Part shown: one piece after another, positions 10,732-34,071 of the stretch | Layout of the letters: each line of letters begins with the position of its first letter | How positions within the stretch are numbered: the stretch's first letter is position 1 | DNA from: a virus | Lineage: Duplodnaviria; Caudoviricetes | IMG/VR virus record: IMGVR_UViG_3300044608_000145 | Coordinates: 1 to 64,000 of that record | Length of the DNA stretch: 64,000 bases | Reading direction: 5' to 3' (one strand) | Notes under the pieces: generated by a model | Databases searched by the model: none | What the model was told of the DNA's origin: nothing | The model's input: only the letters and a program-made list of their open reading frames with translations | Translations under genes and position numbers: made by a program

Positions 10732-10998
10732 TTATTGAAGCGTTAATAGCTTCTTTTTGAACTCATCAATTTTGGCAACACGGTTTGGCCACAAGATGTA
10801 TTCGTTTTCTGGGTTCTTAGCCAGATTGTTAAGCAGTGGCATGACTGCGTTAATCACTGCTGTTGTCTTTGCTTTTTGTTCAGCAAGCTGGGCTTGAAGT
10901 TGCTCAACCTCTGTTCCTAGCTTTTCATTAGGAATCTCATCCGCAGCTACGGTAGAAAAACCAAAGTCAAAGTCAAAATCGAATTGATTCGTACTCAT
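10732..10998 (-). CDS. Hypothetical protein (coiled coil, YILWPNR)
   Basis: ORF coupled to the gp43 stop by an ATGA overlap. Confidence 0.6.
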   Translation of the reverse strand: MSTNQFDFDFDFGFSTVAADEIPNEKLGTEVEQLQAQLAEQKAKTTAVINAVMPLLNNLAKNPENEYILWPNRVAKIDEFKKKLLTLQ

Positions 10999-13490
10999 GA
11001 GAAGAAATCCTCTAGGGTTGCTATTTGCTCAGTTTTCATACCTGCAGCAGAAGCAATGGTTGTTATGGGAGTAAGGAAGCCGACATCTATGTGGTCTTCG
11101 CGATTAATATACTTTTCGAGCCTAAACTCTGGCGGTAGATATCCAGCTGGGAATGCGATAACTTCACATTGTGCTGGGTTAGGAACAACCAAGGAAACGA
11201 ACTTAATCTTGTCACCATCGGAGATCCTTGGGTATTTATTAGTCAGATTAAGTTTGCGCAGGAAATCGTTATATTGTAGCGCACCCTTGACATGCATCGG
11301 AACACCCTTGTCGCCCAACTTGTACTTCGACATTTCTTTTACAGAACTGTTGCGCGCGATGTCAGCTGGATTAGCTTCATTAAACTTATCACGGAACGAT
11401 TCGATGTAATCAAACAAAGCAGATTGGTCGCCTTTCAGGATTATCTTGGCTGCTTCTTCGATAGCACCACGACAGATAGTAGGAGTTGATGAGCGAACAG
11501 CTTCGATGCCTGTCATCTTAAACTTGGCTTCTTTGAACGCAACACCCTCGTTGTTCCATACTGACATGATGTAACGCTTCGCGCCAGTCCAGATCGCAGA
11601 CTCAGCAATCGCTTCTCGTTTCATAGCCATGGCTTGTTCGAATGCATTCATTTCTGTGGCAAGTTCGCCATAGAACTTATCGATGTATGGCTGAATCTTT
11701 CCTTCGCAGACTTGGTCTAGGAAGTCAACTTTCTCAGCGGTGGTCTTATCAGGTACGAACTTGTTTACCAGATCTTCCATCTCGATATACAACGAGTCAG
11801 TATCTGAAGCAATAACGTAGTCTTTGTCAGTTCCGAGCAGTTTGCGCAGATATTCGTTCATGCGATTCATCGCCCACTGGATGGAAACCTGACCTGACAG
11901 AGTAATCGCTTCGGCGAGGTCATCTGAATAGAAGCGGAAGTATTGATTCGACAACGCACCATAAGCTGAGTTAAGTGAGATCTTCTTAGCCATCTGCATA
12001 TTGTTATATTGGACGATCTTACGTTCTAGTTCCTGATTGCCTTTGTCGTTCTGTAGTTGCTTCTGACATTCAATCATCATCTTCTTGAATCGTTTGCGAT
12101 CCTCGTAGTATTTCTTCATGAGCGCAGGTAGGAAACCCTGCTTGTCACGCGAGAATACTGCACCATTACCAGCGATGGTTTGGTTTTTAGATTTAGCTAT
12201 GCTGATTGAATCTTGCCAATGCTCGGTGTTCTTTAGAACTGAGTCTGGTCTGATTCCCATTAGCGTTTCGACGAAGCACTCAGGCGAGATGTTATACTGC
12301 ATGATTAGATGCGGATACAGACTATTCAAGTCAAACGAAACAACCCAGTTGTAGCGACCGACTTCAGGATGCTTAACGAAAGCACCAGCGATCTGCGCAT
12401 CTTTGCGACTATCTCTCTGCATCGGAATCACGACACCTTGGTCGCGCAGATAGTTGTGAATGATGACATCCCATAGCAACACAGAAGTCATCGCATCGCC
12501 GTAGTTGACCTTGGCATCGTACGCAATAGCACAAGCCTGTTCGATAAACTTCATCTTCTGCTCGAGTTTGACAACGAGCGAAACGTCTTTGACGTTGTAC
12601 TCCATGTACAACTGATGATTGCGCTGATACAGATCGTCTAGGTTTGTATAACCTAGTTCGCGATAGTCAACTTTCTTCTCACCGAGTTCTACCTGAGAAA
12701 TATAGTCAAGTGAATACTGTTCTTGTTTGATGTAGGTGAACTTCTGATACAGCTGAATGTAGTCAAGAACTGGAAGTCCGACCAGCTCAACGATGTTCTG
12801 TTCGCGTCCCATCTTGTCGTAATATGTACGGAACTCCGTCATATTCCAAGGCGACATCTTCTTGGCTTCTTCCTCGTTAATCTCATTAGCAATACGCTGA
12901 TACAGATAAGGAATATCGAAGCCATCTACGTTCCAGCCAGTCACGATATCCGCATCAAGCTCACGCCATTTGCGAATAAACTTCATCAGCATTTCTTTTT
13001 CTGAAGTGCACTCAACGTACACGATGTCTTCGTTGTGCGGGATGAATCCTTTGAGTGCCCAAGCATAGTAAGTGATGCCATCGCTGATAGTGATAGCAGT
13101 TACAGCTTTGTCAGCTGTCTTTAGATTAGGGAAGCCACCGCGCGAATCAGTTTCGATATCGAGATAAGTTATGCGAAGTGCTTTTACATCAAAGTCTATT
13201 TCGCCTGGATACTCATCGTTGATGTAAACATATGGCCAACGGTTCATGCCATAGTATTCAAACGAAGAGATATCCTTATACTGTTTGACAAAGTCACGTG
13301 CTTCGCCGATAGAGTCAAACTGAATCTTATCAACTTGCTTGCCGTCTAGCGTTTTGTACTGACTGGGTTGCTTGGTAGGAACGAACAGATAAGGTTTGTA
13401 TGCGATGCGACGCTGGACTCGTTTACCATTTTCATAGCCACGAACCAGCAGATCGTTTCTTCGTTGTTCAACAGACGTGTAGAACTTCAT
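10995..13490 (-). CDS. gp43: Family B DNA polymerase
   Basis: Exonuclease DIET and GWNVDGFD; polymerase SFDLNSLYP, KISLNSAYG, SDTDS; C-terminal TLEDFF clamp peptide; start MKFYT overlaps the upstream TGA. Confidence 0.97.
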   Translation of the reverse strand: MKFYTSVEQRRNDLLVRGYENGKRVQRRIAYKPYLFVPTKQPSQYKTLDGKQVDKIQFDSIGEARDFVKQYKDISSFEYYGMNRWPYVYINDEYPGEIDFDVKALRITYLDIETDSRGGFPNLKTADKAVTAITISDGITYYAWALKGFIPHNEDIVYVECTSEKEMLMKFIRKWRELDADIVTGWNVDGFDIPYLYQRIANEINEEEAKKMSPWNMTEFRTYYDKMGREQNIVELVGLPVLDYIQLYQKFTYIKQEQYSLDYISQVELGEKKVDYRELGYTNLDDLYQRNHQLYMEYNVKDVSLVVKLEQKMKFIEQACAIAYDAKVNYGDAMTSVLLWDVIIHNYLRDQGVVIPMQRDSRKDAQIAGAFVKHPEVGRYNWVVSFDLNSLYPHLIMQYNISPECFVETLMGIRPDSVLKNTEHWQDSISIAKSKNQTIAGNGAVFSRDKQGFLPALMKKYYEDRKRFKKMMIECQKQLQNDKGNQELERKIVQYNNMQMAKKISLNSAYGALSNQYFRFYSDDLAEAITLSGQVSIQWAMNRMNEYLRKLLGTDKDYVIASDTDSLYIEMEDLVNKFVPDKTTAEKVDFLDQVCEGKIQPYIDKFYGELATEMNAFEQAMAMKREAIAESAIWTGAKRYIMSVWNNEGVAFKEAKFKMTGIEAVRSSTPTICRGAIEEAAKIILKGDQSALFDYIESFRDKFNEANPADIARNSSVKEMSKYKLGDKGVPMHVKGALQYNDFLRKLNLTNKYPRISDGDKIKFVSLVVPNPAQCEVIAFPAGYLPPEFRLEKYINREDHIDVGFLTPITTIASAAGMKTEQIATLEDFFS

Positions 13491-13885
13491 CAATACTTCT
13501 GCCCTTCGAACCACTTGGTCGGGCGATCGTCTAGGTGAGCGAGTTCTGGGTTTTGTTCAATTAGATTCAAGAGTTGTTCCATCATCATTAGATTACATAC
13601 AGCGTGACCGATGTGTCGTGCTTTCGATTCATGGTCGATATCGTCGCCCATCTCAATCGCAGCAAGATGCCGTTTGACACAGCCGATGTATTGACTCATC
13701 GGTCCACCCTTCGCCCAGTTCCATGGCGCATACTTGTTAGCACCATAAGCAAAAACATCGGCGGTTGATTTAAGAAGATGGGTTGGTACTAGGTCGTACC
13801 GAGTTTTATTTGCATTGTAGCGAGCGCATGTGCCAAATTCCTCTGACTCAAGGTCGCCCTGTGCTGGCTTTTCTTTCTTACTCAT
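13490..13885 (-). CDS. dATP/dGTP diphosphohydrolase-domain protein (DUF5664-like)
   Basis: KTRYDLVP...VFAYGANKYAPWNWAKG...RHL...DHESKARHIGHAVCN pattern. Confidence 0.75.
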   Translation of the reverse strand: MSKKEKPAQGDLESEEFGTCARYNANKTRYDLVPTHLLKSTADVFAYGANKYAPWNWAKGGPMSQYIGCVKRHLAAIEMGDDIDHESKARHIGHAVCNLMMMEQLLNLIEQNPELAHLDDRPTKWFEGQKY

Positions 13886-13956: not shown

Positions 13957-14304
13957 TTATTTACCGATTGATGTCAACCAAGCAACAACTTTTTGTAGCC
14001 ATGTTGGTTGTTTATCTTCAGCCCAGACAAAAGATGCTGGTTCTGGTTGTTTTGCGTTTTCGCGGAAGAAAGGCAGTTCAGGTTGTACTGCTTCTGGCTT
14101 TGCTTTTTCAGCAGTTTTAGCAGAAGCAAGATTACCGTCTAGTTTGTCTTTCTTATCGCCCTTGGCAGCAATTGCCTGAACGCGAGATTTCTTAGAAGGA
14201 TAGTATCTCTTCTTTTTCTTCTTTGGAGTAATAGCATCTGCAACAATTTTTGCTGCTTGTGCTTTATTCGTTGGTTTCTTTTCCATTATTATCACCTTGT
14301 ACAA
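13957..14304 (-). CDS. Basic hypothetical protein
   Basis: Lys-rich with an amphipathic C-terminus; the true start may be 14286. Confidence 0.5.
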   Translation of the reverse strand: MYKVIIMEKKPTNKAQAAKIVADAITPKKKKKRYYPSKKSRVQAIAAKGDKKDKLDGNLASAKTAEKAKPEAVQPELPFFRENAKQPEPASFVWAEDKQPTWLQKVVAWLTSIGK

Positions 14305-14719
14305 TTGTAATTAAATCGGGATCAAAATAGTTTTGTCCTTTTAGGATTTTACCATCCTCCCTGTATATTGGCTTCCCGTCCAATCCTAGCTTAGACATGT
14401 TAGAACGATGCACCTCGTTAAAACATTTATCTAAGTCAATACCAAATGCGTGACCTGCACCATACACCACGTATAGCAAATCGGTCAGCGCATCAGCAAC
14501 TTCGACAATATCCTTGTCACGAATTGCTTCCTTCAATTCGCCCAGTTCCTCTGCAATCAATTCAACTCTCAGTTTGCAGATATCTTTCGATGGGAACTCA
14601 GCTTTGTACTTAACTTCTTGACCGAAGGTATGCATAAACACACCAACATCTTCAAAGTTACTCAGCTGTTCTTTTCTTCCATTATAAAATTTGTCAGTCA
14701 TATTAAAACTTCTTCCCAA
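14264..14719 (-). CDS. MazG-like / PRA-PH-like NTP pyrophosphohydrolase
   Basis: LIAEELGEL, EVADALTDLLYV, EVHRSNMSK, REDGKILKG. Confidence 0.85.
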   Translation of the reverse strand: MGRSFNMTDKFYNGRKEQLSNFEDVGVFMHTFGQEVKYKAEFPSKDICKLRVELIAEELGELKEAIRDKDIVEVADALTDLLYVVYGAGHAFGIDLDKCFNEVHRSNMSKLGLDGKPIYREDGKILKGQNYFDPDLITIVQGDNNGKETNE

Positions 14720-15098
14720 TTTTGTATTTGCTAATCAATTCCCACTCATGCTTTTCTTTGTAAGGAATCACCTTAATGAATTTCATCGGAGCTTGGTTTT
14801 CTTCGCTCATCTTAGGATTCACTAATTCAATTAAACCCCAATCAGCCAACAAGTTCGCAATAGTATTTCTACGCGCAAGATCTTCGTCATCTAGTGATGA
14901 TGGCTTTCCGTCTAATGCGAAAAGTTCTTTGAAGTGCACGATGTAATACTTACCACGTTTATGTAGTATATGGCATGACTGATATAAGGTTTTGTTTTTC
15001 TCTGAAGCAACACCTACTCTAGTTAATGTTTCCTTAACTTTTAGAAAATCATCTTCCTGATGTAGCTTCACTTCGACAAACGTATCTAATGAAGTCAT
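14703..15098 (-). CDS. regA: Translational repressor RegA
   Basis: DDFLKVKETLTRVG, QSCHILHKRGKYYIVHFKELF. Confidence 0.95.
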   Translation of the reverse strand: MTSLDTFVEVKLHQEDDFLKVKETLTRVGVASEKNKTLYQSCHILHKRGKYYIVHFKELFALDGKPSSLDDEDLARRNTIANLLADWGLIELVNPKMSEENQAPMKFIKVIPYKEKHEWELISKYKIGKKF

Positions 15099-15490
15099 TT
15101 TGTATTTCCACCTTTTTGTAGTTTTTGTAATATAAGGTCAACTTGCTCGGTGGTTAATACTGTAGAGATATCTTTTGCTTTCTGAACACTGCAACCATAA
15201 TATTCTGCGAGTTGCATGACAATTTCATCCTTACTAGCTTTAGCCCACTTCGAAAATCTTTTACTCTTCCGCACACTATTTAGTAAATACTCATACTGAA
15301 GCAGACCACCCAGCTCTGGGCGCATGTTCATATCATTTGCGTACATGATGGTGTCAGGAAAGTAGGAAAGACCTCGGTTGGTTAGGAATGCGTTATATTG
15401 CTTCTCAGCTAGTTCTGGGTTCTCGGTGTCACGAATCAGGTTCTTCTTAGTATAGGTGATGCTGTTGGTGTAATCGAATGGATTTGACAT
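15095..15490 (-). CDS. gp62: Clamp loader small subunit
   Basis: NRGLSYFPDT, KRFSKWAK; synteny between gp44 and regA. Confidence 0.9.
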   Translation of the reverse strand: MSNPFDYTNSITYTKKNLIRDTENPELAEKQYNAFLTNRGLSYFPDTIMYANDMNMRPELGGLLQYEYLLNSVRKSKRFSKWAKASKDEIVMQLAEYYGCSVQKAKDISTVLTTEQVDLILQKLQKGGNTK

Positions 15491-15491
15491 G

Positions 15492-16433
15492 TTACACCCA
15501 CTCGGCTTCGACCATAACTTCAGTTAGGAATGCGACCGTATTGATTTCTTGGTCGGCAACGAACGCTGACTGATACTGATAGCGACCTAGCAACAGAACC
15601 AGTTGCGGGATGCTGTTTGGCTTCATATAGGTTGAAGCCATGTCATAGAACTTGCGAAAGAACGCAGTTGGCTCGGTGTCTAGATTTTCGGAAACCCACT
15701 TGCGCATATCATTGAACCGCTTGTTCTTCAGCAAGTCAACAAGACCCTTGAAGTTTTCTTCGCCGAGATTAGCGAGGATACCGCTGTCGATTTTACCTGT
15801 AGCACTATAACGCTGAAGCTCATTTAGAACTCGACGCCAGTCTGGGAAGTGCTTGGTTACGACTTCGGCAACAACAGCCTTGTCAAACTCGACTCCTTCT
15901 TGCTCTAGGATACCACAAGCACGCTTATGGAACTGAGCTGCCAGTTTCGGCTTCTGGCTAGATGGGATTTTGAATTCAATTACTGAACAACGCGAATGTA
16001 GCGGTTCAATGATACGATTCTTGAAGTTACAGGTCAGAATGAATCCGCAGTTCTTAGAGAACTCTTCCATGAAGTTGCGAAGAGCTGGCTGAGTTGACTG
16101 CGCATTTAGATAGTCTGCCTCATCGAGGATAACCATCTTGCGAGTACCTGTAAACGAAATAGTAGAAGCGAAGTTCTTAATCTCGGTGCGTAGAGTATCG
16201 ATACCACCGTTCATAGAACCATTGATTTCGATATAGTCAAGTCCGAGTTCTTCACACATCGCACGAGCGACGGTGGTTTTACCAGTTCCTTGCGAACCAG
16301 TCAGCAACAGGTTAGGGATGCTACCCTGTTTTACAAATTCTGAGAAAGTCGACTTCAGACTTTCTGGCAGAATGCAATCTTCAATCTTGTGTGGGCGATA
16401 CTTCTCGACCCAAAGAAAGTCGTCTTTCATCAT
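15492..16433 (-). CDS. gp44: Clamp loader large subunit
   Basis: LWVEKYRP, GTGKTT, ILDEAD, IIEPLHSRC. Confidence 0.95.
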   Translation of the reverse strand: MMKDDFLWVEKYRPHKIEDCILPESLKSTFSEFVKQGSIPNLLLTGSQGTGKTTVARAMCEELGLDYIEINGSMNGGIDTLRTEIKNFASTISFTGTRKMVILDEADYLNAQSTQPALRNFMEEFSKNCGFILTCNFKNRIIEPLHSRCSVIEFKIPSSQKPKLAAQFHKRACGILEQEGVEFDKAVVAEVVTKHFPDWRRVLNELQRYSATGKIDSGILANLGEENFKGLVDLLKNKRFNDMRKWVSENLDTEPTAFFRKFYDMASTYMKPNSIPQLVLLLGRYQYQSAFVADQEINTVAFLTEVMVEAEWV

Positions 16434-16448
16434 AATATAATTCCTTCA

Positions 16449-17003
16449 TCATATAATCCTCTTGTATGGTTTTTCATGAATCCATACAGTGGCAATCCAT
16501 TTAATTTCTCCATCAGTCGGTGGTTCACCAACGTGGAGTGTTTTCATATTTGTTTCTTCGTCTTTGTAATCATATCTAAAGTATGATGCTCTGCCACAAA
16601 CAGGCTTTACTGAATAGTTTAATTTCGGAAAGGAAGTTAAACCGCCAGACGAAACATCATTTAAGTAAATGATTACAGTCGCAACTCGAATGTTGGTGGA
16701 TAGAGTGTTGAAGTCTACATGTTTCTTGTATTCTTCACCCGATTCATATTTAATGATAGAGATCGGTTCGCAATACTCTAAACCAACATTTGCTACTTTG
16801 GTAACAGCTTCAAGTAAGGACACAGTAGCATGGCTATGCGTATGCGATAACCATGTACTCTTGCTTGTACGATATCCAGATTCACCGCCCGATATCTTAG
16901 AAGGCTCCAACAATGGAGTTGCTTCATTTATGATATCTTGACAAACTTCCTTAGTCAGGAAGTTGTCAATTACTTTGATGAGTGGGCGATCGTTTAGAAT
17001 CAT
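16449..17003 (-). CDS. Prolyl-4-hydroxylase-like 2OG-Fe(II) oxygenase
   Basis: RTSKSTW, HVD (HxD), IYLNDV..GG.T.FP, LHVGEP, KWIATVW. Confidence 0.85.
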   Translation of the reverse strand: MILNDRPLIKVIDNFLTKEVCQDIINEATPLLEPSKISGGESGYRTSKSTWLSHTHSHATVSLLEAVTKVANVGLEYCEPISIIKYESGEEYKKHVDFNTLSTNIRVATVIIYLNDVSSGGLTSFPKLNYSVKPVCGRASYFRYDYKDEETNMKTLHVGEPPTDGEIKWIATVWIHEKPYKRII

Positions 17004-17671
17004 TGACCGTATTTTGAGCTGCTTTCTGTTGCGATGAAGTATTCAAGTCCAGCCTTTTCGTTGGCGAACTTACCCATACCTTTCGAAGAGATGGATACTT
17101 TATAGTCACCGCTGATTAGCTTCAAGTTCTCAGACTTGAATACCATACGGAACTTTGCTTCGTTGGTAACTGCAACATCAACGTGATATTCGTTAGAAGT
17201 ATCGTTCTTGACGTTGGTAGCAACCAGCTTGGTCTGGGTTGAACCATCAGAAACAACAGCGATTTCTGGAGCCTGAAGGACGCTCGCAGCTTTCAACACT
17301 TCGCTGATGTTAGAGGCAGACGCATCAAACACAACTTCTTCGGTAGGAAGTTGTAGCTTCTTCTCAGGAGCAGCAAGAATCATGCTTGGCTCAGCGAACC
17401 AATACTTGATGCTACGCTTACCGCTAGAGATGGTGACGAACTTGTCAGTAAAGTCAAAGTCAGGATCTTCGAACAAGCTGACAGCACCAAGGAACTGACC
17501 GAGGTCATAGATCGCGAAGCTGGTCGGGAAGTTTTCAGAAACGACAGCAGAAGCTAGAATATTTTTCTGCGGTGAGATAGTCGACAGTGTTGAACCTGCA
17601 CGAACTAGGATGTTTCCATTGATAGAAGAAAAGTTCTTCAGAATGGAAAGGGTTTGGCTTGAGATCTTCAT
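17000..17671 (-). CDS. gp45: Sliding clamp
   Basis: LKNFSSIN, FAIYDLGQFL, ENLKLISGDY, YFIATE. Confidence 0.92.
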   Translation of the reverse strand: MKISSQTLSILKNFSSINGNILVRAGSTLSTISPQKNILASAVVSENFPTSFAIYDLGQFLGAVSLFEDPDFDFTDKFVTISSGKRSIKYWFAEPSMILAAPEKKLQLPTEEVVFDASASNISEVLKAASVLQAPEIAVVSDGSTQTKLVATNVKNDTSNEYHVDVAVTNEAKFRMVFKSENLKLISGDYKVSISSKGMGKFANEKAGLEYFIATESSSKYGQ

Positions 17672-17954: not shown

Positions 17955-18827
17955 TTACTTCTTCTTCTTTTCTGCTTGTTTTTGCTTGTTAATTAAACCA
18001 GTATCCGCAGTTGCAGAAGCACCGATAGAAGCAAGAGCAGACAGCGAACCACCAAAGGTGTAAGTACCAGTGTGTTGTAGTTCCATCCACGGACATAGCC
18101 AGATTGTTCCGCCCATCTTGATTACATTCTGACAGAACATGTAGTCTTCCGACAAATAACGCTTCGTCGCAGGATCGATGATGCAGTCGAAGTAAGCATG
18201 GATTTCACGAGTACCATCAAACGCAGCAGTGCGAACGTGGTCTGGTTTGTAGCTGTATTGCGGATAAGCAGCTTTGTATTCATCGAACACTTTGCGCTTA
18301 ATCATCATGAAGCCAGTTCCGATTTCAAGAACCTTTGCTGGTTCATTTAGTTTGATTTCAGTTTGGCCAGCATCAACGATTGGATTGAACACAAAGTCAC
18401 CAACGTACTTTTCAAGTTCGTTAGGATTCTCGTCGCCTACACCTTTGTTGACAGCTTGTACGATCTTTTCCCAAGAGATACATTTCTTAGGATATGGACC
18501 ACCGATGATATCATACGGAGATTCATCATCCTGCAATGCAAGCAACGACAGAACGTCGTTAGGGTTGAATCCGATATCCGAGTCGATAAACATCATGTGA
18601 GTTGAATCAGAACGTAAGAACTCATCAACGCAATAGTTACGAGCGCGAGTAATCAGCGATTCATTGAACAGATAGTAAACGCGCATCTCGATACCATACT
18701 TGACGCACATAGCAGTCAAGTCAGCAACAGAACGACAGTAAGTACCGTGGCATTGTCCGCCGTACATAGGTGTTGCGACAAACAGTTTACGCTTGCGCAA
18801 TTCTTCAATTTCTACTTTAATCTCCAT
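17955..18827 (-). CDS. GT-A-fold glycosyltransferase-like protein
   Basis: VATPMYGG, ESLITRARN, FIDSD (DxD), GTGFMMIKR, LSEDYMFC. Confidence 0.7.
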   Translation of the reverse strand: MEIKVEIEELRKRKLFVATPMYGGQCHGTYCRSVADLTAMCVKYGIEMRVYYLFNESLITRARNYCVDEFLRSDSTHMMFIDSDIGFNPNDVLSLLALQDDESPYDIIGGPYPKKCISWEKIVQAVNKGVGDENPNELEKYVGDFVFNPIVDAGQTEIKLNEPAKVLEIGTGFMMIKRKVFDEYKAAYPQYSYKPDHVRTAAFDGTREIHAYFDCIIDPATKRYLSEDYMFCQNVIKMGGTIWLCPWMELQHTGTYTFGGSLSALASIGASATADTGLINKQKQAEKKKK

Positions 18828-19105
18828 TATACAATGATTCCTTGTTTTGGTGTGATGATTTTACCAGTCAATTCTTTGTAGTGATTGACTAGTGGTTCTT
18901 GTGGGTCAAGAATGCATAGGATGGAAGATTTCTCGAAATATACTTTTTCAGTGATAGCATACGGCGAGAACTTCATCAAGACCAACCCTTTATCTGGGTG
19001 CATGGCAAGCGAGTATGGATTATGTGCTACTTGAACATCAGTCATTTCAAGTTCGCAAATAATATCTTCGCCTGTAATTAGTTTTACTAGTTTGACTTCC
19101 ATCAC
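18827..19105 (-). CDS. Sm-like fold phage protein
   Basis: VKLVKLITGEDIICEL N-terminus; paralogue of the next ORF. Confidence 0.55.
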   Translation of the reverse strand: MMEVKLVKLITGEDIICELEMTDVQVAHNPYSLAMHPDKGLVLMKFSPYAITEKVYFEKSSILCILDPQEPLVNHYKELTGKIITPKQGIIV

Positions 19106-19389
19106 GGCACCGATGATACGATGCTCTTGCGAGGTTTGGTGACCTTAGCAGTAGCATTCTCAAAATCGTCAATCAATGATTCGACTGGCGTGACAATAAA
19201 CATAATATGCTTCTTATCGATGGTAACAAACTTAGCAGCAGATGTGTACTGCATGTAAGGGATGAACACTAGACGACCATCATTTACAGCAACCAACATA
19301 GCATTGGTCAACTCTACAGAGTCGCCCTTATCTTCCAGCTCAGAAATGATTTCTTCGCCAGTAGTCAATTTAATTACTTCTACACTCAT
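19102..19389 (-). CDS. Sm-like fold phage protein
   Basis: VIKLTTGEEIISEL N-terminus, FIPYM. Confidence 0.55.
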   Translation of the reverse strand: MSVEVIKLTTGEEIISELEDKGDSVELTNAMLVAVNDGRLVFIPYMQYTSAAKFVTIDKKHIMFIVTPVESLIDDFENATAKVTKPRKSIVSSVP

Positions 19390-19919
19390 TTTAATATCCT
19401 CTTCAATTTTGCCAGTTTCTTCTGGCGTTTCAATGCGAGTTCTTTCTGGACGAAAGAAGCTCGGTCAATATACTTAGTTCCATTCATATGGTCTAATTCG
19501 TGGAGAAAGCAACGAGCAGCCATGCCAGTAAACTTTCTTGTCATAATTTCGCCACTCGGTTCAGCATAACGAACCTTGATGTGGCGCGCTCGTTTAATTT
19601 TGATGCCAAGTCCAGGAAAAGACAAGCATCCTTCTTCCAACATAATTTCCTCGCTAGATTCGTCAATCAATTTAGGATTGAAACAAACAAGAGCAGGAAC
19701 AGCTTCCATAGCAAATACTCTGTATGGCAAGCCGATCTGATTGGCAGAAAGACCAATACCACCATGATGTCGCATAGATTCAACTAGATCGTATGCTAAT
19801 TGAATTGGGTCGATGGTTGGATTATCAAAATCAAATCTTGGCATCTCTTGTGAGAGGATAGGGTCAGTATCCTTCACTAGAGCATGTATTACACCTTTAT
19901 AACTTGTTACATCTTTCAT
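19386..19919 (-). CDS. def: Peptide deformylase
   Basis: GIGLSANQIG, EGCLSFP, HELDH. Confidence 0.93.
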   Translation of the reverse strand: MKDVTSYKGVIHALVKDTDPILSQEMPRFDFDNPTIDPIQLAYDLVESMRHHGGIGLSANQIGLPYRVFAMEAVPALVCFNPKLIDESSEEIMLEEGCLSFPGLGIKIKRARHIKVRYAEPSGEIMTRKFTGMAARCFLHELDHMNGTKYIDRASFVQKELALKRQKKLAKLKRILK

Positions 19920-21268
19920 GCGAAGAATGCCTCGAGAGAAGTTGGTTTAGTTTCAAGTGCTTCTGGGTGATATCTAGCAAGCATATCTTTACCATCTTTG
20001 TCTGGCATTCCTTCGATAAACTTATACCACTCTTTGCTTTCCCACATGTTAGGTGATACACCGTTCCAAAGTGGACGCCATTCAGGATGGTCTTGGTTCA
20101 GACGACGCGCTTCTACGAAGTCACGACGCAGAGTTTCATATTCCCACGAGCCAAGTTCTTTCATGTTCTCACGGAAGTAACAGACGATAGACATACGCTC
20201 AACGCAGTCCATACAGCAGTTGTCGTCTGGTGGTAGAATTTCCGTATTACCGTGGATTGCTGTGTGGTTAGCAATAAGCAACACATCTCCTGGGCGGATA
20301 TTTACAGCTACTCGGAACTCTGGCAATACCAAATAGCCACCGCGATAGTCTTTGCCATTGGTAACGACACCAAGGTTAGAGAATCCTGGTCCAAGATCGC
20401 CAGCATCTCGATGTGCGGCAGTACGGAAATTCTTGTTAATAGTAATCGTGGTAAAGACAGTATCTTCAGCGACACGGAAACGCTTGTCTAGCCTGTCAGA
20501 ATATTCTTTCTGAACGCCATAGCGTTGTGGTAATAGATTTTTGAAGAACTTATCTAGCTTACGGAAGTATGGAAATGCTTTCTCAAACAGTTCTGGATGT
20601 TTCCAGTTGTAGGCGCAGATACGACCATAAGGGATGCGCGGATAACGGTCAAAGAAACCAGCGATACCTGAGTTGACAACAGTAGCGTAGGTCGTGCCAG
20701 AAATACAGTCAGCCATTTCTTTGGCTTGCTTGACTTGTTCTTCTTTAGATAGCTTGACTGTCTTGGCTAACCAAGTGTCAAAGAAACCTTCGTATTCTTC
20801 GTTTGGTTCTAGACGAGCAGTAATCTTGTTGCGTAGCCAAACCAGACCACGAGTTGACTCAGCTTTGAAGCTGGCTTTCTCAGCAATCAACGTCTGTACT
20901 GGGTCAGAACCATCGAGTGTGGCTGATGGATGCGACATTGCGTCAAGCACTGCAGTTTGCCAATCAGTCACCCAGTCGCGACCACCGCATGTATCAGTTT
21001 TTGGTCCTGCTGCAAGTCCACGATTCTGACTTTCAGTAGCACCCTTGATTAGTCCTTCGTATGCGCCAAGTTGTTCTTCGGCGGTGTAAACTCCCTTACG
21101 GAATTTGAATGCGATGTTGTGTTCGCCATTTCCTGGGAACAACGTATTATTTGGAACATAGAAATCACAATCTTCTTCAATCAGAAGATCGTAGTGTGAT
21201 TCGTCTAGGAACGTACCCAACAAGTGTTCGCAATTAAGCCACTTGTCAGCTGTAATTATTTTAGTCAT
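19916..21268 (-). CDS. TET/JBP-family 2OG-Fe(II) dioxygenase (5-methylpyrimidine hydroxylase)
   Basis: FTTITINKNFRTAAHRDAGD (HxD), GGYLVLPE, HGNT, ERMSIVCYFRE. Confidence 0.8.
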   Translation of the reverse strand: MTKIITADKWLNCEHLLGTFLDESHYDLLIEEDCDFYVPNNTLFPGNGEHNIAFKFRKGVYTAEEQLGAYEGLIKGATESQNRGLAAGPKTDTCGGRDWVTDWQTAVLDAMSHPSATLDGSDPVQTLIAEKASFKAESTRGLVWLRNKITARLEPNEEYEGFFDTWLAKTVKLSKEEQVKQAKEMADCISGTTYATVVNSGIAGFFDRYPRIPYGRICAYNWKHPELFEKAFPYFRKLDKFFKNLLPQRYGVQKEYSDRLDKRFRVAEDTVFTTITINKNFRTAAHRDAGDLGPGFSNLGVVTNGKDYRGGYLVLPEFRVAVNIRPGDVLLIANHTAIHGNTEILPPDDNCCMDCVERMSIVCYFRENMKELGSWEYETLRRDFVEARRLNQDHPEWRPLWNGVSPNMWESKEWYKFIEGMPDKDGKDMLARYHPEALETKPTSLEAFFA

Positions 21269-21290
21269 ATATTCTCCGATTCAAAATTGT

Positions 21291-21319
21291 ATTATACCAT
21301 AATTTAAGCATTAAGTAAA
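21291..21319 (-). promoter_or_regulatory. Promoter TTTACT-N17-TATAAT for the TET/JBP gene
   Basis: The -35 overlaps the last codons of the upstream GT. Confidence 0.7.
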
Positions 21320-22663
21320 GAAATCTTCTAGGGTGCTAACAGCAACAGGTTCGAAGTGTTCTTCCCATATTTTATCTGCGACAGGTTGTACTTTCGGGTC
21401 AACACTCAAAGAACCAACTTTGTTCTCTGGCATCTCTCCGCCAGGATTTCCTAATGCTAAATCAATATATTGTTGCGCAATTCTCTTGCGAGAAAACTTC
21501 TTGAGAAGTTTATAATTATTTTCGCGAATACGATTATATTCTTCCTCGGATATATTTAGAAAATCGTTTACTAGATTTCCGAACTGTTTCGGGGTTGCAT
21601 CGTGCGGAATCATTAGGTAATTCATGTTTGGTTTAAGTAGCATACCAACACCATCCTCGCGTTCGGAAACACCAAAGTTTCTAGCGATAGGAACGACACC
21701 AGCGCGGATAGCATCAATCACAACACGATTGAAGTGTTCGCCGTATGTGTTAGACCAAGAGGTGTCGATTAGGAATTTAGATTCAGAAAGAATAGCGTCG
21801 CGTTTGGCTTCTGTAATAAAACCGATATAATCCATTCTACCAGTTTTCGTAGCGTTATCCCAGATCTTGTTACCAACCATATCAGTTGTAGCATCTGGAT
21901 CCGACTCAGCAGTACAGAAATACTCTTCTTTACATTTGTCTGGCGACGTCATATAGTTTCTTTCGATACCATCACCAGCAATGATAATCTTTTCTGCGCA
22001 GATATATGGCACAGACTTAACTAGGTCATCAACTCGCTTCCAACGTTTGAATGTTTGTAGCGAAAGAATCTGTCGCTTTAGTGAAGAGAACTCTGGAGCA
22101 ATTGGTCTGTTCTCGACATCCTGTGGATTGAGAATAAGATTTCTCGGAACTGGCATAAACTCAGCTTGTTTGTATGCACTCGGATGCACACACGCTAGAC
22201 CAGCAAACTTATGACTAAACTTATAGATCCAGCTGTATAGCTTCTTTAGATTACCGTCATGAATAACAACAAGTTGTTTAGCGTTGACGTTTTCTATCAT
22301 CGGCTTCCACGCAGTAAACAATTCAGTTTCGCTGTTCTTGAAGCCAAAGATGGATTGCCAAATCAATATGTCATGTTTGTTAGCATCAGCTACGAAGCGG
22401 TCAATACAATCTTGATTCTTGAACGAATAGTATGGCGCATTCCATCCCTTTCCTTGATGAACAGGAAGACCTGTACCAGCACCAAACTCATAGCCTTCTG
22501 GCAGATCGGTGGTGTTTACAGGTCGTGGGGATTGAGCGGATGGTTTGAGATAAGCGAACGTAACATCATGACCCAGTTCTTTCAAGCCAGCGATTAGTTG
22601 TTCGTTGTGAGCAATGATGCCACCAAAGTTATTGAAGGTGTGCATCGCAACCATAATTTTCAT
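21311..22663 (-). CDS. GT-B glycosyltransferase, probably DNA-modifying
   Basis: GGIIAH...LKELGHDV N-terminus, KRWKRVD, IAGDG, EHFNRVVIDAIRAGVVPI (GT4-like); adjacent to TET/JBP. Confidence 0.75.
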   Translation of the reverse strand: MKIMVAMHTFNNFGGIIAHNEQLIAGLKELGHDVTFAYLKPSAQSPRPVNTTDLPEGYEFGAGTGLPVHQGKGWNAPYYSFKNQDCIDRFVADANKHDILIWQSIFGFKNSETELFTAWKPMIENVNAKQLVVIHDGNLKKLYSWIYKFSHKFAGLACVHPSAYKQAEFMPVPRNLILNPQDVENRPIAPEFSSLKRQILSLQTFKRWKRVDDLVKSVPYICAEKIIIAGDGIERNYMTSPDKCKEEYFCTAESDPDATTDMVGNKIWDNATKTGRMDYIGFITEAKRDAILSESKFLIDTSWSNTYGEHFNRVVIDAIRAGVVPIARNFGVSEREDGVGMLLKPNMNYLMIPHDATPKQFGNLVNDFLNISEEEYNRIRENNYKLLKKFSRKRIAQQYIDLALGNPGGEMPENKVGSLSVDPKVQPVADKIWEEHFEPVAVSTLEDFFT

Positions 22664-22665
22664 AA

Positions 22666-23070
22666 TTAACCTTTAAGTCTAGATCTTAATTCACTTGTGC
22701 TTAGTTTATGGCTTCGGCGATTATAATAAATCTCAATGTTATTGTCAATACAGAACTGTTTACCAGTAAATTCTTTCTCAATGTAATCAGAACCGATAAT
22801 ACGAACATCAATCGGCAGGATTGCCAACAAATCCATCAAGTCAGCTTCGGTAGCATAAACATAGATTTCGTCTACGAACTTGCATGCACGAAGTTGAATG
22901 AATCTTTCGGTGACAGTTTGTATTGGTTTGTTCTTTTCTGGGCGATCGATAGTCGGGTCAGTTTGAAGACCAGCAATCAACCAATCACAGTTCTCTTTTG
23001 CTTCTTCTAACATAGCAACATGACCTGCGTGTAGCAGGTCAAAAGCTGAAGCGGTAAATCCTACTTTCAT
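22666..23070 (-). CDS. TagD/RfaE-type cytidylyltransferase
   Basis: FDLLHAGH (HxGH), NKPIQ..ER, RSHKLSTSELR; start MKVGFTAS at 23070. Confidence 0.85.
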   Translation of the reverse strand: MKVGFTASAFDLLHAGHVAMLEEAKENCDWLIAGLQTDPTIDRPEKNKPIQTVTERFIQLRACKFVDEIYVYATEADLMDLLAILPIDVRIIGSDYIEKEFTGKQFCIDNNIEIYYNRRSHKLSTSELRSRLKG

Positions 23071-23076
23071 AATAAT

Positions 23077-23105
23077 ATTATATCCTATTTTGGGCAATTA
23101 GTAAA
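23077..23105 (-). promoter_or_regulatory. Promoter TTTACT-N17-TATAAT, 6 nt before the ATG (leaderless)
   Basis: Exact consensus, no SD. Confidence 0.75.
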
Positions 23106-23106
23106 A

Positions 23107-24816
23107 TTATGCGATGCGACTGAAATTGCCTTGTTTCTCAAACTTAATGATGCTATGGAACTTGTCGTATAGAGCATCGCCTTTGTGCGAGATAATGAAT
23201 GTGTTATTATCCGCAGTGAGATTATTTAGAATCTTTAGGAACTCGTCTGTACCAACACCGTCAAGCGAACTGTCAAACACTTCGTCCATAATCAGCAGGT
23301 TTGTGGTTGCTGAGTTTCTCATCTTAGCGATAGCACGCCAAGTGAACAATACAGCCAGATTGATTCGCATCTTCTCACCCTCGGAGAACGAGTTGTACGA
23401 GAACTCATCACGGAAGCGCGACTTAATCTTTTCATTAAACTGTTCGTCCAACTCAAAGTGAACGAAGAAGTCCATCGCAGCCAGATACTTGTTAATCAGT
23501 TTATTCATGATAGGAATATACTGACGGATAATCTTTGTCTTGATGCCACCGTCTTTGAGTAGAGCAGAAGCAGCAGACAGAACAGCGTTTCGTTTTGATA
23601 GCATCTCACGTTTAGCTTCGATCTCAGCCAGTTCTTCTTTCAACGCAAGCAACGTAGCAGTCGACTCGGTTGTATCTTGTTCTACGGACAAAGAAGCATT
23701 TTCAGTTTCTAGTGCTTTGTAGTTTCGTTTCTCAGATTCAATTTGAGCCGTCACTACTTTGATTTGTTCGTTTGCTTTAATCATCGCTTGACGAGTTTGT
23801 TTGATATTATCAAGACGAGCAGTCACTTGAGTCTGCTCGCCGTCGATAATTTCTAGTTCTTCTTTGATAGAAACTAGAGTAGCATTCTTGTTACTTACCG
23901 CCGACTCTTTGAAGTCATGCGCGATACCCTGCTTACAGGTAGGACAGTTTTCGTTGTCGTGAAAGAATTTGATTTCTTTCTCAAGCAAGAACATACGATC
24001 CCATAGACGAACGCGATTATCTGAAAGATCATTAGCTTTCTGTAATACTTCAGCTTCGTCGCTAACACCAAGTTCAAGAGTAACATACTCGTTTTGATAA
24101 TCTTTGATTGACCCACGCAGTCCAACGATAGTCTTTGCGATTTCTTTAATCTTTGCATTGTTGGCTTGAATACGAGTATCTTTATCTTTACGGACACTTG
24201 CGAGATACTTCTGTTCCATTGCAATCTTTTCAGAACATAGGTCAGCAGCATACTTGGTATCTGCCACTTCTACTTTATTAGAAGCAACCTTTTCTTTTAG
24301 AATATTGTTCATAGAAGTAAAGATTTGAATGTCAAGTAGATCTTCAATTACTTCGCGTCGTTGGTTTGCTGGCAACTGCATGAATGGCACATACGTTGAT
24401 GAACCAAGAACAACTACCTGAGAGAACGAACGATGGTTCAGTTTCAGAATAGTTTTTTCTAGGAACTCTTGGTAATCACGATTAGCTGAATCCTGATTAA
24501 ACATCGCGCCATTCTTGTAGATTTCAAACAGATTAGGTTTGATACCACGAACAACTTTATATTCATCGCGACCAACCGTAAACTCAATTTCTACAACAGC
24601 GTCTTTATTATTGATGCTGTTAATCAGTTGCGGCTTGTTAATCTTACGGAATGGTTTGTTATACAGCGCGAACGAGATAGCGTCAAGGATGGTAGATTTA
24701 CCTGCACCATTCTGACCGACAATCAACGTGGACTTGGATTTATCCAGCTTGACTTCGGTAAACACGTTGCCAGTCGACAGGAAGTTCTTCCAGCGAACTA
24801 CTTTGAAGTTTATCAT
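23107..24816 (-). CDS. gp46: Rad50/SbcC-like recombination nuclease subunit
   Basis: GQNGAGKST, CPTC zinc hook, FSEGE, LIMDEVFD. Confidence 0.95.
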   Translation of the reverse strand: MINFKVVRWKNFLSTGNVFTEVKLDKSKSTLIVGQNGAGKSTILDAISFALYNKPFRKINKPQLINSINNKDAVVEIEFTVGRDEYKVVRGIKPNLFEIYKNGAMFNQDSANRDYQEFLEKTILKLNHRSFSQVVVLGSSTYVPFMQLPANQRREVIEDLLDIQIFTSMNNILKEKVASNKVEVADTKYAADLCSEKIAMEQKYLASVRKDKDTRIQANNAKIKEIAKTIVGLRGSIKDYQNEYVTLELGVSDEAEVLQKANDLSDNRVRLWDRMFLLEKEIKFFHDNENCPTCKQGIAHDFKESAVSNKNATLVSIKEELEIIDGEQTQVTARLDNIKQTRQAMIKANEQIKVVTAQIESEKRNYKALETENASLSVEQDTTESTATLLALKEELAEIEAKREMLSKRNAVLSAASALLKDGGIKTKIIRQYIPIMNKLINKYLAAMDFFVHFELDEQFNEKIKSRFRDEFSYNSFSEGEKMRINLAVLFTWRAIAKMRNSATTNLLIMDEVFDSSLDGVGTDEFLKILNNLTADNNTFIISHKGDALYDKFHSIIKFEKQGNFSRIA

Positions 24817-25895
24817 GCTTCGCGCTCCGCGCTCAATGCTTCTTGATATAATTCAGTCAGCAAGTTGTTAAGGTCTTTAGCCATAGTTTGTTCAGTTTCA
24901 GGTAGATACTGGGCGACGAACTTACGCATGATAGTCAGCGTGTCTTCGGCTTCGTCGACGATGTCAGCGTCATCTTCTAGGTCGAGGTTGAGATGGTCTT
25001 CTACGATTTGTAGGTCAAGAACACCAGTCTTTTCAATCTTGTCAACGACGATATCAAACCAGTAAGGGTTTGTCTTGTTGCGAACAATCAGCTTTACAAA
25101 CGAATTACTAAAACCACTAAAGTCTTGTTCGATGACTTCTTCCATAGTTTTATTCACGTCGTCATACAGGACTTTGTGAAACATAGGAAATGGATTTTGT
25201 ATGAACGTCAGCTCGCGCGACTCTGTGTCAAATATATGAAAGCCACGCGGATCGTTATAATCCGACCAAGTCATTTCATATGGTGCACCAAGATAGTTGA
25301 TATTACCTTTGGTGGATTTGTGATGGAAGTGACCTGACATTACAACGTCGAACTTATCAAATAGTTTTGAATCGAAGCCATGGTCGTTGCCAACAACACC
25401 CTTATACATTTCGAAGCCAGCCAACTCTAGGTGACCGATTAGAACTTGTGCGGGAGTGTCATTAATAAAGTCCATAGACGACTGATAATTACCAGAGCAG
25501 ATCCATGGTAGGAATGCTACGTCAAGTCCATCAAAGTTAAGCGTCTTGGCTTCGGATACGATATGCATATTTTCGTAGTCAGCGAACAGCAACTCCATCG
25601 TATTGACTTCGTTGGTATTCTTATAATATGCAGTATGATTACCCACGATAGTATAAAGCTGAACGTTGCGTGTACGCAGTTCGTCGAACCACATATCCTT
25701 GGCAGCTTTAAGCGAGTGGAAGTTGATATACTTACGGCGATCGAATGTGTCACCGCCATCCCAGACGACTTTAATATCGTTGGCGTCTATGTATGGTAAA
25801 ACTACCTCGCGATAGAATTTCGCTTGGTAGTCATAAAAGGCGACGTTGTCATTGCGAACACCGAAGTGTTGGTCAGTTAAAATAGCAATTTTCAT
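24813..25895 (-). CDS. gp47: Mre11/SbcD-like recombination nuclease subunit
   Basis: TDQHFG, GDTFD, GNH, SGHFH. Confidence 0.95.
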   Translation of the reverse strand: MKIAILTDQHFGVRNDNVAFYDYQAKFYREVVLPYIDANDIKVVWDGGDTFDRRKYINFHSLKAAKDMWFDELRTRNVQLYTIVGNHTAYYKNTNEVNTMELLFADYENMHIVSEAKTLNFDGLDVAFLPWICSGNYQSSMDFINDTPAQVLIGHLELAGFEMYKGVVGNDHGFDSKLFDKFDVVMSGHFHHKSTKGNINYLGAPYEMTWSDYNDPRGFHIFDTESRELTFIQNPFPMFHKVLYDDVNKTMEEVIEQDFSGFSNSFVKLIVRNKTNPYWFDIVVDKIEKTGVLDLQIVEDHLNLDLEDDADIVDEAEDTLTIMRKFVAQYLPETEQTMAKDLNNLLTELYQEALSAEREA

Positions 25896-25903
25896 TATAA
25901 GAT

Positions 25904-25932
25904 ATTATACCCTATTCAGGGTCATTAGTAAA
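25904..25932 (-). promoter_or_regulatory. Promoter TTTACT-N17-TATAAT, 8 nt before the gp47 ATG
   Basis: Exact consensus overlapping the end of gp55. Confidence 0.7.
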
Positions 25933-26502
25933 TGATTGAGTGAGAACTGTGTCAATAGACTTCTTGACCTTTGCAGTCTTGGCTTTCTTTTTCTCTTCGA
26001 TCTTGTCTTCAAAGTTCTTCACGAAATCATTAATGTAGTCGGTGTCTTCCATTACTGCTACGTCAAAATCTTCACCAGAGTTTCCTTCTTGTAGGTGATG
26101 CATTGCGCCATCAACCATCTGTTGGTGATACACTTTATGTTTGACGTAAACTTGCTTCTTTTCTTTTTGGATTCTACGCAGAAACGCATAGTAGATAATC
26201 TGAGTAAAGTAAGAGAATGGATTATTAGATCTGTCAGGATTAAAGTTATCAAAATAAGTGATGCAGTTTTCTAGACCATCAGCAATCATTTCATCGCGAT
26301 ATGAATAGTTGATAAAGTTAGGTCTGTATGATAACTTTGTGGCTATCTTATAAAGACACTCACCGATATACTTTGGTATCTTTGGTTTCGGTAGCCCTTG
26401 TTCTGATGCATCAAGGCATGCTTGTTTGTAGTCCTTCATCGCTGCATAGAACTCGAGGTTGCTTACATAGTGGTTAGATTTTGGTGGGGCTGGCTGTTTC
26501 AT
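25912..26502 (-). CDS. gp55: Late sigma factor
   Basis: HYVSN.EF, YIGEC, RPNFINYSYRDEMIADG.ENC, NPFSYFTQI. Confidence 0.95.
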   Translation of the reverse strand: MKQPAPPKSNHYVSNLEFYAAMKDYKQACLDASEQGLPKPKIPKYIGECLYKIATKLSYRPNFINYSYRDEMIADGLENCITYFDNFNPDRSNNPFSYFTQIIYYAFLRRIQKEKKQVYVKHKVYHQQMVDGAMHHLQEGNSGEDFDVAVMEDTDYINDFVKNFEDKIEEKKKAKTAKVKKSIDTVLTQSFTNDPE

Positions 26503-33476: not shown

Positions 33477-34024
33477 TGTTTTACGGTTCCGCCTTGAGCA
33501 GTTGCGTATTGTAGCTTATCTTCTCCTGGTTCTAGACTTGCAATTTTGCTAGTGTCTTTACCATGAGTAGCACGGAACTGAGCATCAGTTGCAACTGGAT
33601 GACCGACCGTCTTAACTTGATGAGTGATTAGTGCTTGCCAGTCGGATGCATTTTTTGGCATTGCTACTTCTTGTACGTTGCCTTTCTTCATTTTACGAAG
33701 TTTAGCAAAATCTTTAGCGTCGATCTTTTCGTCGTCGACAACATCAATCTTTTGTTGGTTAGAATGAAGAGCTTCTTTCATGGACTTCTTTTTATCGTCC
33801 ATTTCTTCTTCGTCTTCCATTTCTTCGTCTTCATCCTCGTCTTCCATTTCTTCTTCGTCGTCTTCCATTTTCTTGGCTTCGCCAAACATAGAAGCGCCGA
33901 TTTCAGGACGAAGAGCTTCAATTGCATCGTATGCGCGGACTTGAAGCTGAGCGTTTACAAGTTCTTGGAACTTGACTGCATTCTCTTCAACCGCTGCATA
34001 AATTAATTCTTTGATGTCTTTCAT
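33473..34024 (-). CDS. Prohead core protein (gp67-like) with acidic linker
   Basis: Directly after the portal gene; helical N-terminus, E/D tract. Confidence 0.6.
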   Translation of the reverse strand: MKDIKELIYAAVEENAVKFQELVNAQLQVRAYDAIEALRPEIGASMFGEAKKMEDDEEEMEDEDEDEEMEDEEEMDDKKKSMKEALHSNQQKIDVVDDEKIDAKDFAKLRKMKKGNVQEVAMPKNASDWQALITHQVKTVGHPVATDAQFRATHGKDTSKIASLEPGEDKLQYATAQGGTVKQ

Positions 34025-34051
34025 GGGGTTTCCTTTATTAAAGTAACACTA

Positions 34052-34059
34052 TATTTAGT
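34052..34059 (-). promoter_or_regulatory. Late-type promoter ACTAAATA
   Basis: Intergenic, upstream of the core gene. Confidence 0.55.
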
Positions 34060-34071
34060 AAATTATTCAAC

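Follow-up and report, generated by a model that had tools for sequence, protein, structure and literature searches.

How are the enzymes that hypermodify phage DNA brought to the correct DNA at the correct moment? Phage DNA hypermodification has been studied mainly as chemistry, its targeting is an open question, and ParB-like partners are the sole recruiting factor described to date for phage oxidases of the TET/JBP family. The question is raised by IMG/VR record IMGVR_UViG_3300044608_000145, a 72,883-base contig representing a partial genome of a T4-like myovirus, most of which (positions 1 to 64,000, the window) was analyzed. In its replication block, a TET/JBP-family dioxygenase (TET) and a neighboring glycosyltransferase (GT) of the GT-B fold end in a short peptide that also ends the DNA polymerase, gp43. 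These tails, the last six to eight residues, are likely to be a portable clamp-docking peptide of the polymerase type that tethers both enzymes to the sliding clamp gp45, and the phage DNA is probably masked chemically by enzymes docked on the clamp. The principal features are as follows.

19916..21268, minus strand: TET/JBP-family Fe(II)/2-oxoglutarate DNA-base dioxygenase (450 aa; a long form, extended by ~190 aa at the N terminus)
19919..19942, minus strand: dioxygenase tail, TSLEAFFA (stop codon at 19916-19918)
21311..22663, minus strand: GT-B (GT4-like) glycosyltransferase (450 aa)
21314..21337, minus strand: glycosyltransferase tail, STLEDFFT (stop codon at 21311-21313)
10995..13514 (mechanical open reading frame [ORF]), minus strand: gp43 family B DNA polymerase (Pfam DNA_pol_B, 113 bits, plus exonuclease domains)
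10998-11021, minus strand: gp43 tail, ATLEDFFS
17000..17671, minus strand: gp45 sliding clamp, the proposed tail receptor (PF09116 [gp45-slide_C], 50.4 bits)

C-terminal peptides shared with the DNA polymerase

The translated TET ORF ends in ...ETKPTSLEAFFA, the GT ORF in ...PVAVSTLEDFFT, and the gp43 ORF, whose true start is probably the ATG at 13490, in ...EQIATLEDFFS. All 350 ORFs of ≥40 aa on both strands of the window were scanned for [ST]L[ED].F[FLYIMW], a match among the final 15 residues being counted as C-terminal. The motif was C-terminal in three of them only, gp43 (TLEDFF), GT (TLEDFF), and TET (SLEAFF), and in each it ends one residue ahead of the stop. The claim of the sequence-only reading that no other protein of the window ends in (S/T)LExFF was thus borne out. 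One extra match of the window scan was internal, in a 136-aa ORF, and no further tail was found among 67 greedily chosen genes of the whole contig. From amino acid composition, ~0.00012 proteins with the motif at the exact position would be expected by chance, or 0.006 if the motif is loosened and may fall in any of five registers.

The three 3' ends have at most the 18 motif bases in common, of which gp43 and GT are identical at 16. A copied DNA element was considered as the origin of the common tail and rejected, because the flanks around the motif bases are unrelated and the codons vary.

Conservation and anatomy of the tail

Conservation of the tail in homologues, a check proposed in the sequence-only reading, was pronounced. 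Under a fixed pattern (a small or polar residue, L/I/M, a polar residue, any residue, two of F/L/W, and at most two residues thereafter), the tail was kept by 108 TET and 115 GT homologues out of the best 120 of each, reaching down to about 51 to 56% identity. The 12 TET exceptions comprised four truncated fragments, six shorter variants (e.g., SLF, TLF, and SLWS), and two others. Of the five GT exceptions, three were TFDxFF variants, one had the motif placed five residues ahead of its end, and one, possibly truncated, lacked the motif. L445, F448, and F449 were found in 31, 33, and 32 of 33 aligned TET sequences and in 33, 33, and 37 of 37 aligned GT sequences, respectively.

The two enzymes share a tail anatomy in which a conserved anchor (YHPEA in TET and HFE in GT) is followed by five to six columns without a majority residue and then by L-x-x-F-F. 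The variable linker occupies columns 438 to 443 in TET and 439 to 443 in GT, whereas the flanking anchor and motif columns are 85 to 100% conserved. Among 60 distinct TET 3' ends, leucine was encoded by all six of its codons, each phenylalanine position by both codons, and the fourth position was filled by seven different residues; the variety of synonymous codons indicates that the peptide, rather than the DNA sequence, is under selection.

In AlphaFold2 models, the tail lies outside the catalytic fold. The predicted local distance difference test score (pLDDT) was 84.3 for TET and 88.5 for GT (predicted template modeling score, 0.88), with cores at 84 to 88 versus means of 57 (TET) and 53 (GT) for the last 10 residues. 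A short helix was predicted at residues 445 to 449 of each.

Distribution of the tail among phage proteins

Other carriers were sought in two sets of mechanically called ORFs, from which ORFs of <100 aa and ORFs containing X were dropped: 86 viral loci found with the TET alignment (1105 ORFs of ≥100 aa) and 79 loci found with the GT alignment (1021 ORFs). ORFs of the TET-seeded set were classed by BLAST against the window proteins and 22 tail-bearing representatives, each with a Pfam match at an E value of ≤0.01 (three of the 22 under the Pfam curated cutoff).

In the TET-seeded set, the tail was present on 79/83 TETs, 17/20 TET-associated glycosyltransferases (TAGTs; PF20691), 15/17 gp43 polymerases, 12/37 amino-acid:DNA transferases (ADDTs; PF18724), most of the others having GLEEFM-type variants, 6/14 GNAT acetyltransferases, 3/25 gp55 proteins, 2/2 GT-B proteins, and one HNH-like protein. 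In the GT-seeded set, it was present on 66 of 79 GTs, 65 of 71 TETs, and all 26 gp43 polymerases, and GT and TET occurred together in 70 of the 79 loci. Among unclassified ORFs, the tail was found on 1/668 and 4/641 in the TET- and GT-seeded sets, respectively (5/1309 pooled). None of twelve other replication families in the TET-seeded set (gp41, UvsX, gp44, gp62, RegA, gp45, gp46, gp47, deformylase, and three more; 0/238) and no other replication protein in the GT-seeded set (0/193) carried it (0/431 pooled).

Four tail-bearing genes lie together at the TET gene in one locus (L061:4429-8676), encoding a GNAT protein, an amino-acid:DNA transferase, TET, and a protein of 223 aa that matches HNH weakly.

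Five complete relatives were also compared: Stenotrophomonas phage DLP_6, Caulobacter phage Cr30, phage C48C1, and IMG/VR records G001 and G005. Their tail-bearing long ORFs are gp43, TET, and a TAGT or ADDT, to which C48C1 adds a D12-class adenine methyltransferase. The latter (record positions 33480-34364; L114:15480-16364) is a D12-class N6-adenine DNA methyltransferase (PF02086, 84 bits) that ends in STLDAFFG and is encoded directly downstream of gp43.

Among 150 TET representatives at 50% identity, the tail was present on 19, i.e., on 15 of the 27 best-scoring full-length long forms and on 4 of the 123 others, for the most part TETs of 300 residues. The long TET of Synechococcus phage S-CBWM1 lacks the tail, and no match to gp43, gp45, or PF09116 was obtained in this phage; the gp43 query and the PF09116 model matched relatives, and the gp45 protein query was run without such a positive control. 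By these comparisons, the distribution of the tail appears to follow the T4-type replisome.

Many of the short (~300-aa) tail-less TET/JBP representatives end differently, in basic residues and then G-D/T-P-L/I-Y/F/W (P0258, P0284, P0292, P0295, P0346, P0354, P0359, P0367, P0376, P0386, and P0389). This alternative ending may be a docking motif for a different partner.

The sliding clamp as candidate receptor

The window encodes the cognate clamp together with its loader beside the tail-bearing genes, and the late sigma factor gp55 farther upstream.

15492-16433, minus strand: clamp loader gp44 (PHROGs phrog_168, E value of 4e-127)
15095-15490, minus strand: clamp loader gp62 (PHROGs phrog_225, E value of 1e-37)
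25912..26502, minus strand: gp55 late sigma factor (phrog_234, E value of 5e-60)

In a phmmer search of the PDB, the window gp45 matched the RB69 clamp (1b77/1b8h; E value of 9e-21) and the T4 clamp (1czd/6drt; E value of 1e-19). The last 150 aa of the window gp43 align with the RB69 polymerase to its C terminus, tail on tail, and the RB69 tail in that alignment is SLFDMF. The RB69 clamp has been cocrystallized with this C-terminal peptide (11 residues) of its polymerase, and among T4 gp43, gp55, and gp33 one tail can replace another (PMC2988020). The sequence-only reading had stated that these proteins of T4 and RB69 dock on gp45 through a C-terminal (S/T)LDFLF-type peptide. This holds in outline for T4, where gp43 ends in SLDFLFG and gp55 in SLDFLYEAND, and for gp33 (PMC2988020), but the RB69 tail differs. 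The tails of the window enzymes show the hydrophobic and acidic pattern (a leucine and two aromatic residues) of the cognate polymerase, although their hydrophobic spacing differs from that in T4.

Clamp binding by other T4 enzymes has also been reported. T4 DNA ligase has an internal LDFLF loop, which binds gp45 as an isolated peptide with a dissociation constant of about 11 µM; the full-length ligase occupies a gp45 trimer only once, shutting out others (PMC6212786). In a pull-down, gp45 was recovered with T4 alpha-glucosyltransferase (PMC13216743). Docking of the TET and GT tails on gp45 is thus well supported by comparison. That the tails are gp45-docking peptides, as the sequence-only reading proposed, receives strong support from conservation, specificity, and homology to the RB69 and T4 tails, with binding itself a prediction from these comparisons.

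The window gp55 ends in ...TVLTQSFTNDPE, which would at best be a degenerate clamp epitope. In some relatives, gp55 ends in GLEKFFDE or DLMDFFLNEEENE, in which acidic residues come after an enzyme-type motif, much as they end the T4 tail. Across the loci (L008-L093), gp55 endings fall into this acidic-hydrophobic class, the ILT(E/Q)SFTNDPE type of the window, and a strongly basic, K/R-rich class without a hydrophobic motif. These phages may therefore differ in how late transcription is coupled to the clamp.

Enzymes, substrate base, and sugar

The TET ORF matches PF12851 (Tet_JBP) with 81.8 bits against a cutoff of 34.9. Across 33 aligned sequences, H286, D288, H339, and R358 do not vary and, by spacing and family knowledge, are presumably the HxD...H iron triad and the 2-oxoglutarate arginine. 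The best Foldseek matches of the TET model were NgTET1, CcTet, and human TET2 (E values of about 1e-9), with template modeling (TM) scores of 0.3 to 0.5 that are lowered by the extra domains. 

The GT matches PF00534 (Glycos_transf_1) with 27.1 bits, barely above the cutoff of 26.4. The top Foldseek matches of its model were GT4 enzymes (e.g., PimA, BshA, and glycogen synthase; E values of 1e-11 to 1e-13 and TM scores of 0.5 to 0.7), and T4 alpha- and beta-glucosyltransferase were absent from the top structural matches listed. The model thus describes a generic GT4-type GT-B enzyme with a two-Rossmann fold. Action on DNA is suggested circumstantially by the TET neighborhood and the clamp-type tail. 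The argument of the sequence-only reading that the tail supports DNA as the GT substrate is accordingly a fair but circumstantial one, given the co-occurrence of GT and TET in most GT-seeded loci and a fold that is itself generic GT4.

Thymine is the likelier substrate base of TET, because no C5-cytosine methyltransferase (PF00145) was detected in any of the five complete relatives by a search that matched 9 of 14 control genomes, because ThyX is encoded in the window, and because such TET clusters have been interpreted as thymine oxidizers (PMC8989533; PMC13229309; bioRxiv 10.1101/2023.12.21.572611). Against this, a cytosine-methylating enzyme may be encoded elsewhere, the contig being partial, or methylcytosine may arise by a route at the nucleotide level.

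A candidate for sugar activation is encoded directly upstream of GT and lacks the clamp tail.

22666..23097, minus strand: cytidylyltransferase-like nucleotidyltransferase (PF01467, 48.2 bits; phrog_7878, heptose-1-phosphate adenylyltransferase-like)

In metavirome contig 53, a cytidylyltransferase and a GT-B enzyme are reported to put heptose on DNA (bioRxiv 10.1101/2023.12.21.572611). The adjoining nucleotidyltransferase of the window probably makes the activated sugar donor for GT.

Evidence against clamp docking and alternative explanations

Several observations weigh against tethering of TET and GT to gp45. The contact itself is a prediction from comparison. A complex prediction of three gp45 chains with dioxygenase residues 411 to 450, made with separate alignments, scored 0.34, 0.38, and 0.25, and controls with the partner replaced scored 0.00 and 0.00, but replacing gp45 still left a score of 0.23; the prediction was thus nonspecific and bears on neither side. 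By inspection of the listed pairs in the locus sets, there was no clear covariation between the gp43 tail and the TET or GT tails of the same phage: many GTs end in DLESLFG in phages whose gp43 ends in SSLEDFFG or SSLEEFFG, and three loci pair a gp43 tail of SLSAFF or TLSAFF with a TET tail of VSLWS. The window gp55 tail fits the motif poorly, and the TET and GT linkers have just five to six variable residues, versus 17 residues in the linker described for T4 gp55. The counts in both locus sets come from many near-identical contigs and are of nonindependent events, and the TAGT, ADDT, and GNAT classes were seeded from members picked for having the tail.

In addition, the one other class caught by a loose motif scan in every one of the five complete relatives was the baseplate hub (PF12322), whose ending is G-[LMIF]-x-D/N-F-F (record positions 135667-136368 in DLP_6, 133694-134395 in Cr30, 115098-115805 in C48C1, 70899-71612 in G001, and 151535-152320 in G005). 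The motif of the hub is part of the folded PF12322 domain, and the ending is taken as a look-alike, either a false-positive class for motif scans or a coincidence. A virion protein with a similar ending means that the letters alone are no proof of clamp binding.

The tail could dock on another replisome or host partner, such as a single-strand-binding protein, the clamp loader, or the primosome, and recruit the enzymes to replication centers without riding on the clamp. As the receptor, gp45 is a candidate by comparison, and two different gp45 sites are under discussion even for T4 gp43 (PMC2988020), so that relations between tail and receptor are not simple. The tail nevertheless stands at the position of the RB69 polymerase peptide crystallized on the clamp (PMC2988020), its L-x-x-aromatic-aromatic and acidic pattern is that of known gp45 ligands (PMC6212786), and S-CBWM1, in which neither gp43, gp45, nor PF09116 was matched, has a TET that lacks the tail. 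Another partner is therefore improbable. Still less is to be said for a turnover or timing signal, in which a protease would read the tail as a hydrophobic tag limiting the lifetime of early enzymes, with no tether. C-terminal hydrophobic tags are known degradation marks, and every carrier is an early or middle replication-phase protein, but the other early replication families never have the tail, the motif keeps an acidic residue and two aromatics as PIP-like peptides do, and the clamp-binding role of the polymerase tail is documented in T4 and RB69. Such a signal is highly improbable.

Alternatively, the tail may bind gp45 but hardly affect modification, as a weak, dispensable contact or through regulatory competition with the polymerase and late-transcription factors for the clamp pockets. 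T4 offers the closest precedent: alpha-glucosyltransferase binds gp45, but the share of alpha-glucosylation depends on how strong its promoter and translation are, and the level of this modification was attributed to expression strength and not to clamp contact, and either glucosyltransferase alone gave wild-type virulence (PMC13216743). Since clamp contact does not explain the modification level in T4, the tether may matter little for bulk modification. Furthermore, exclusive binding of one full-length ligase per trimer (PMC6212786) is in keeping with competition. A dispensable contact is hard to reconcile with a tail kept under strong purifying selection in hundreds of homologues, on no fewer than six unrelated enzyme folds, and an explanation of this kind is rather unlikely. 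A weaker role of the tail, in phage DNA targeting, timing, or pocket competition, is nonetheless a live alternative to processive modification.

Comparison with known systems

Clamp-binding tails of T4-like phages, a clamp-binding DNA glucosyltransferase, a clamp-binding ligase, and TET/GT chemistry are already known. The tails of TET and GT resemble the T4 and RB69 gp43, gp55, and gp33 epitopes described in PMC2988020 in lying at the extreme C terminus and in being hydrophobic and acidic, with a leucine followed by two aromatic or hydrophobic residues. They also share a divergent linker in front of the tail and a gp45-type clamp gene nearby. They differ in spacing (L-E-x-F-F here versus L-D-F-L-F in T4) and in that the additional carriers are DNA-modifying enzymes rather than the polymerase or transcription factors, gp45 binding being here a prediction.

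Sommer et al. (2004) reportedly described an interaction between T4 alpha-glucosyltransferase and gp45. That enzyme provides a phage DNA glycosyltransferase with a sliding-clamp contact, as is proposed here for GT, and its gene lies between genes 55 and 47 in the same 55-47-46-45 neighborhood. Unlike the window GT, T4 alpha-glucosyltransferase ends in ...EQFDIITK and beta-glucosyltransferase in ...KKAIDL, both without a polymerase-type tail, and a C-terminally His-tagged alpha-glucosyltransferase still bound gp45 (PMC13216743). T4 makes hydroxymethylcytosine before replication, so that its pathway involves no DNA oxidase, whereas the oxidase and the GT of the window are both tailed.

T4 DNA ligase (PMC6212786; PDB 6drt) is likewise a DNA-processing enzyme with an acquired, polymerase-like clamp motif. 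The motif is an add-on dispensable for catalysis, and its peptide sits in the hydrophobic pocket of gp45 (PMC6212786). It lies in an internal loop and is bound as an alpha helix, whereas the motif here is C-terminal, as in the polymerase.

The enzyme pair resembles the 5mYOX/TET and glycosyltransferase pathways, in which the oxidase makes a hydroxymethyl acceptor in finished DNA and GT-A or GT-B enzymes add sugars (PMC8256090; bioRxiv 10.1101/2023.12.21.572611; PMC13229309; PMC8989533). According to the same papers, most such clusters are without a C5 methyltransferase and are thought to target thymine; in their available text, gp45, clamp, or clamp-loader genes are named merely as neighbors, and no clamp-binding tail is mentioned. 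The published thymine oxidases are ParB dependent or stand-alone, and the window enzyme is longer, with an extra N-terminal region and the tail.

In eukaryotes, the maintenance DNA methyltransferase is tethered by PCNA. The logic is the same, a short clamp-binding peptide recruiting a DNA-modifying enzyme to newly replicated DNA, but the proteins are unrelated, the clamp is another one, and a pattern is copied there, whereas modification here would be blanket.

A full-text literature search found no description, in the passages that it covered, of a polymerase-type tail on phage TET, GT, TAGT, ADDT, GNAT, or Dam enzymes. This suggests that the presence of such a tail on DNA-modifying enzymes is new.

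Gene order and neighboring genes

By window ORFs, Pfam, and PHROGs, the replication block lies on the minus strand in T4 gene order. The TET-GT region had no nucleotide match, and the GT no protein match, in the phage collection. Peptide deformylase, two small paralogues, a second GT-like gene, and DsbA are encoded between TET and gp45. A prolyl-hydroxylase-like oxygenase, gp44, gp62, RegA, and MazG-like and deoxynucleoside triphosphate-diphosphohydrolase-like genes lie between gp45 and gp43.

23107-25895, minus strand: gp47 and gp46
18827-19105 and 19102-19389, minus strand: two tandem small paralogues (phrog_527; 92 and 95 aa), between the deformylase and the GT-like gene
17955-18827, minus strand: GT-like protein of 290 aa (phrog_1574), adjoining DsbA; no tail
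16449-17003, minus strand: prolyl-4-hydroxylase-like 2-oxoglutarate-Fe(II) oxygenase, between gp45 and gp44; no tail
14264-14719, minus strand: PRA-PH/MazG-like pyrophosphohydrolase, between gp43 and RegA
13490-13885, minus strand: dATP/dGTP diphosphohydrolase N-terminal domain protein (PF18909, 92.7 bits), also between gp43 and RegA, abutting the probable gp43 start

The PF18909 protein and the MazG-like enzyme suggest nucleotide-pool editing, perhaps tied to base modification. The prolyl-4-hydroxylase-like oxygenase and the 290-aa GT-like protein are probably not DNA directed; in related loci, the tail was found on none of their counterparts (0/4, and 0/19 plus 0/23, respectively).

Proposed mechanism and implications

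In the proposed mechanism, gp44/62 would load gp45 trimers, each with three equivalent pockets, onto primed phage DNA, and clamps would also remain on finished stretches. The dioxygenase, through its tail on a short flexible linker, would grip the clamp and oxidize a 5-methylpyrimidine in the new duplex, most likely thymine to 5-hydroxymethyluracil. The glycosyltransferase, docked likewise, would cap the hydroxyl with a sugar, for which the neighboring nucleotidyltransferase would probably give the donor. Tethering would thereby raise the local enzyme concentration on DNA just made by the phage replisome. What is inferred is binding itself, which base is the substrate, how the steps follow one another, and whether rate, processivity, or timing benefits. 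The sequence-only reading had gone further, to processive, replication-coupled modification right behind the fork. Its docking component is upheld by comparison, but no result backs "processive" or "right behind the fork"; both are conjecture, since the contact of T4 alpha-glucosyltransferase, the only tested clamp-binding DNA glycosyltransferase, does not set the modification level.

A broader interpretation is possible but distinctly more tentative. Among T4-like phages from water and soil, any enzyme that has to work on fresh phage DNA may use the polymerase-type tail as a general, portable address label, acquired independently by at least seven unrelated folds (TET oxidase, GT-B, TAGT, amino-acid:DNA transferase, GNAT, Dam methylase, and HNH-like protein). 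The clamp may then act as a self-marker that confines hypermodification to phage DNA, as phage-only loading of the clamp would allow, if true. The tail could likewise serve as a search key, or sequence tag, for new DNA-modifying enzymes in metagenomes, and two cultured phages, Cr30 and DLP_6, carry the tails. If the interpretation is true, the replication clamp would be a platform for modification in a large group of T4-like aquatic and soil phages, and the polymerase, the modification enzymes, and late-transcription factors would compete for its three pockets.

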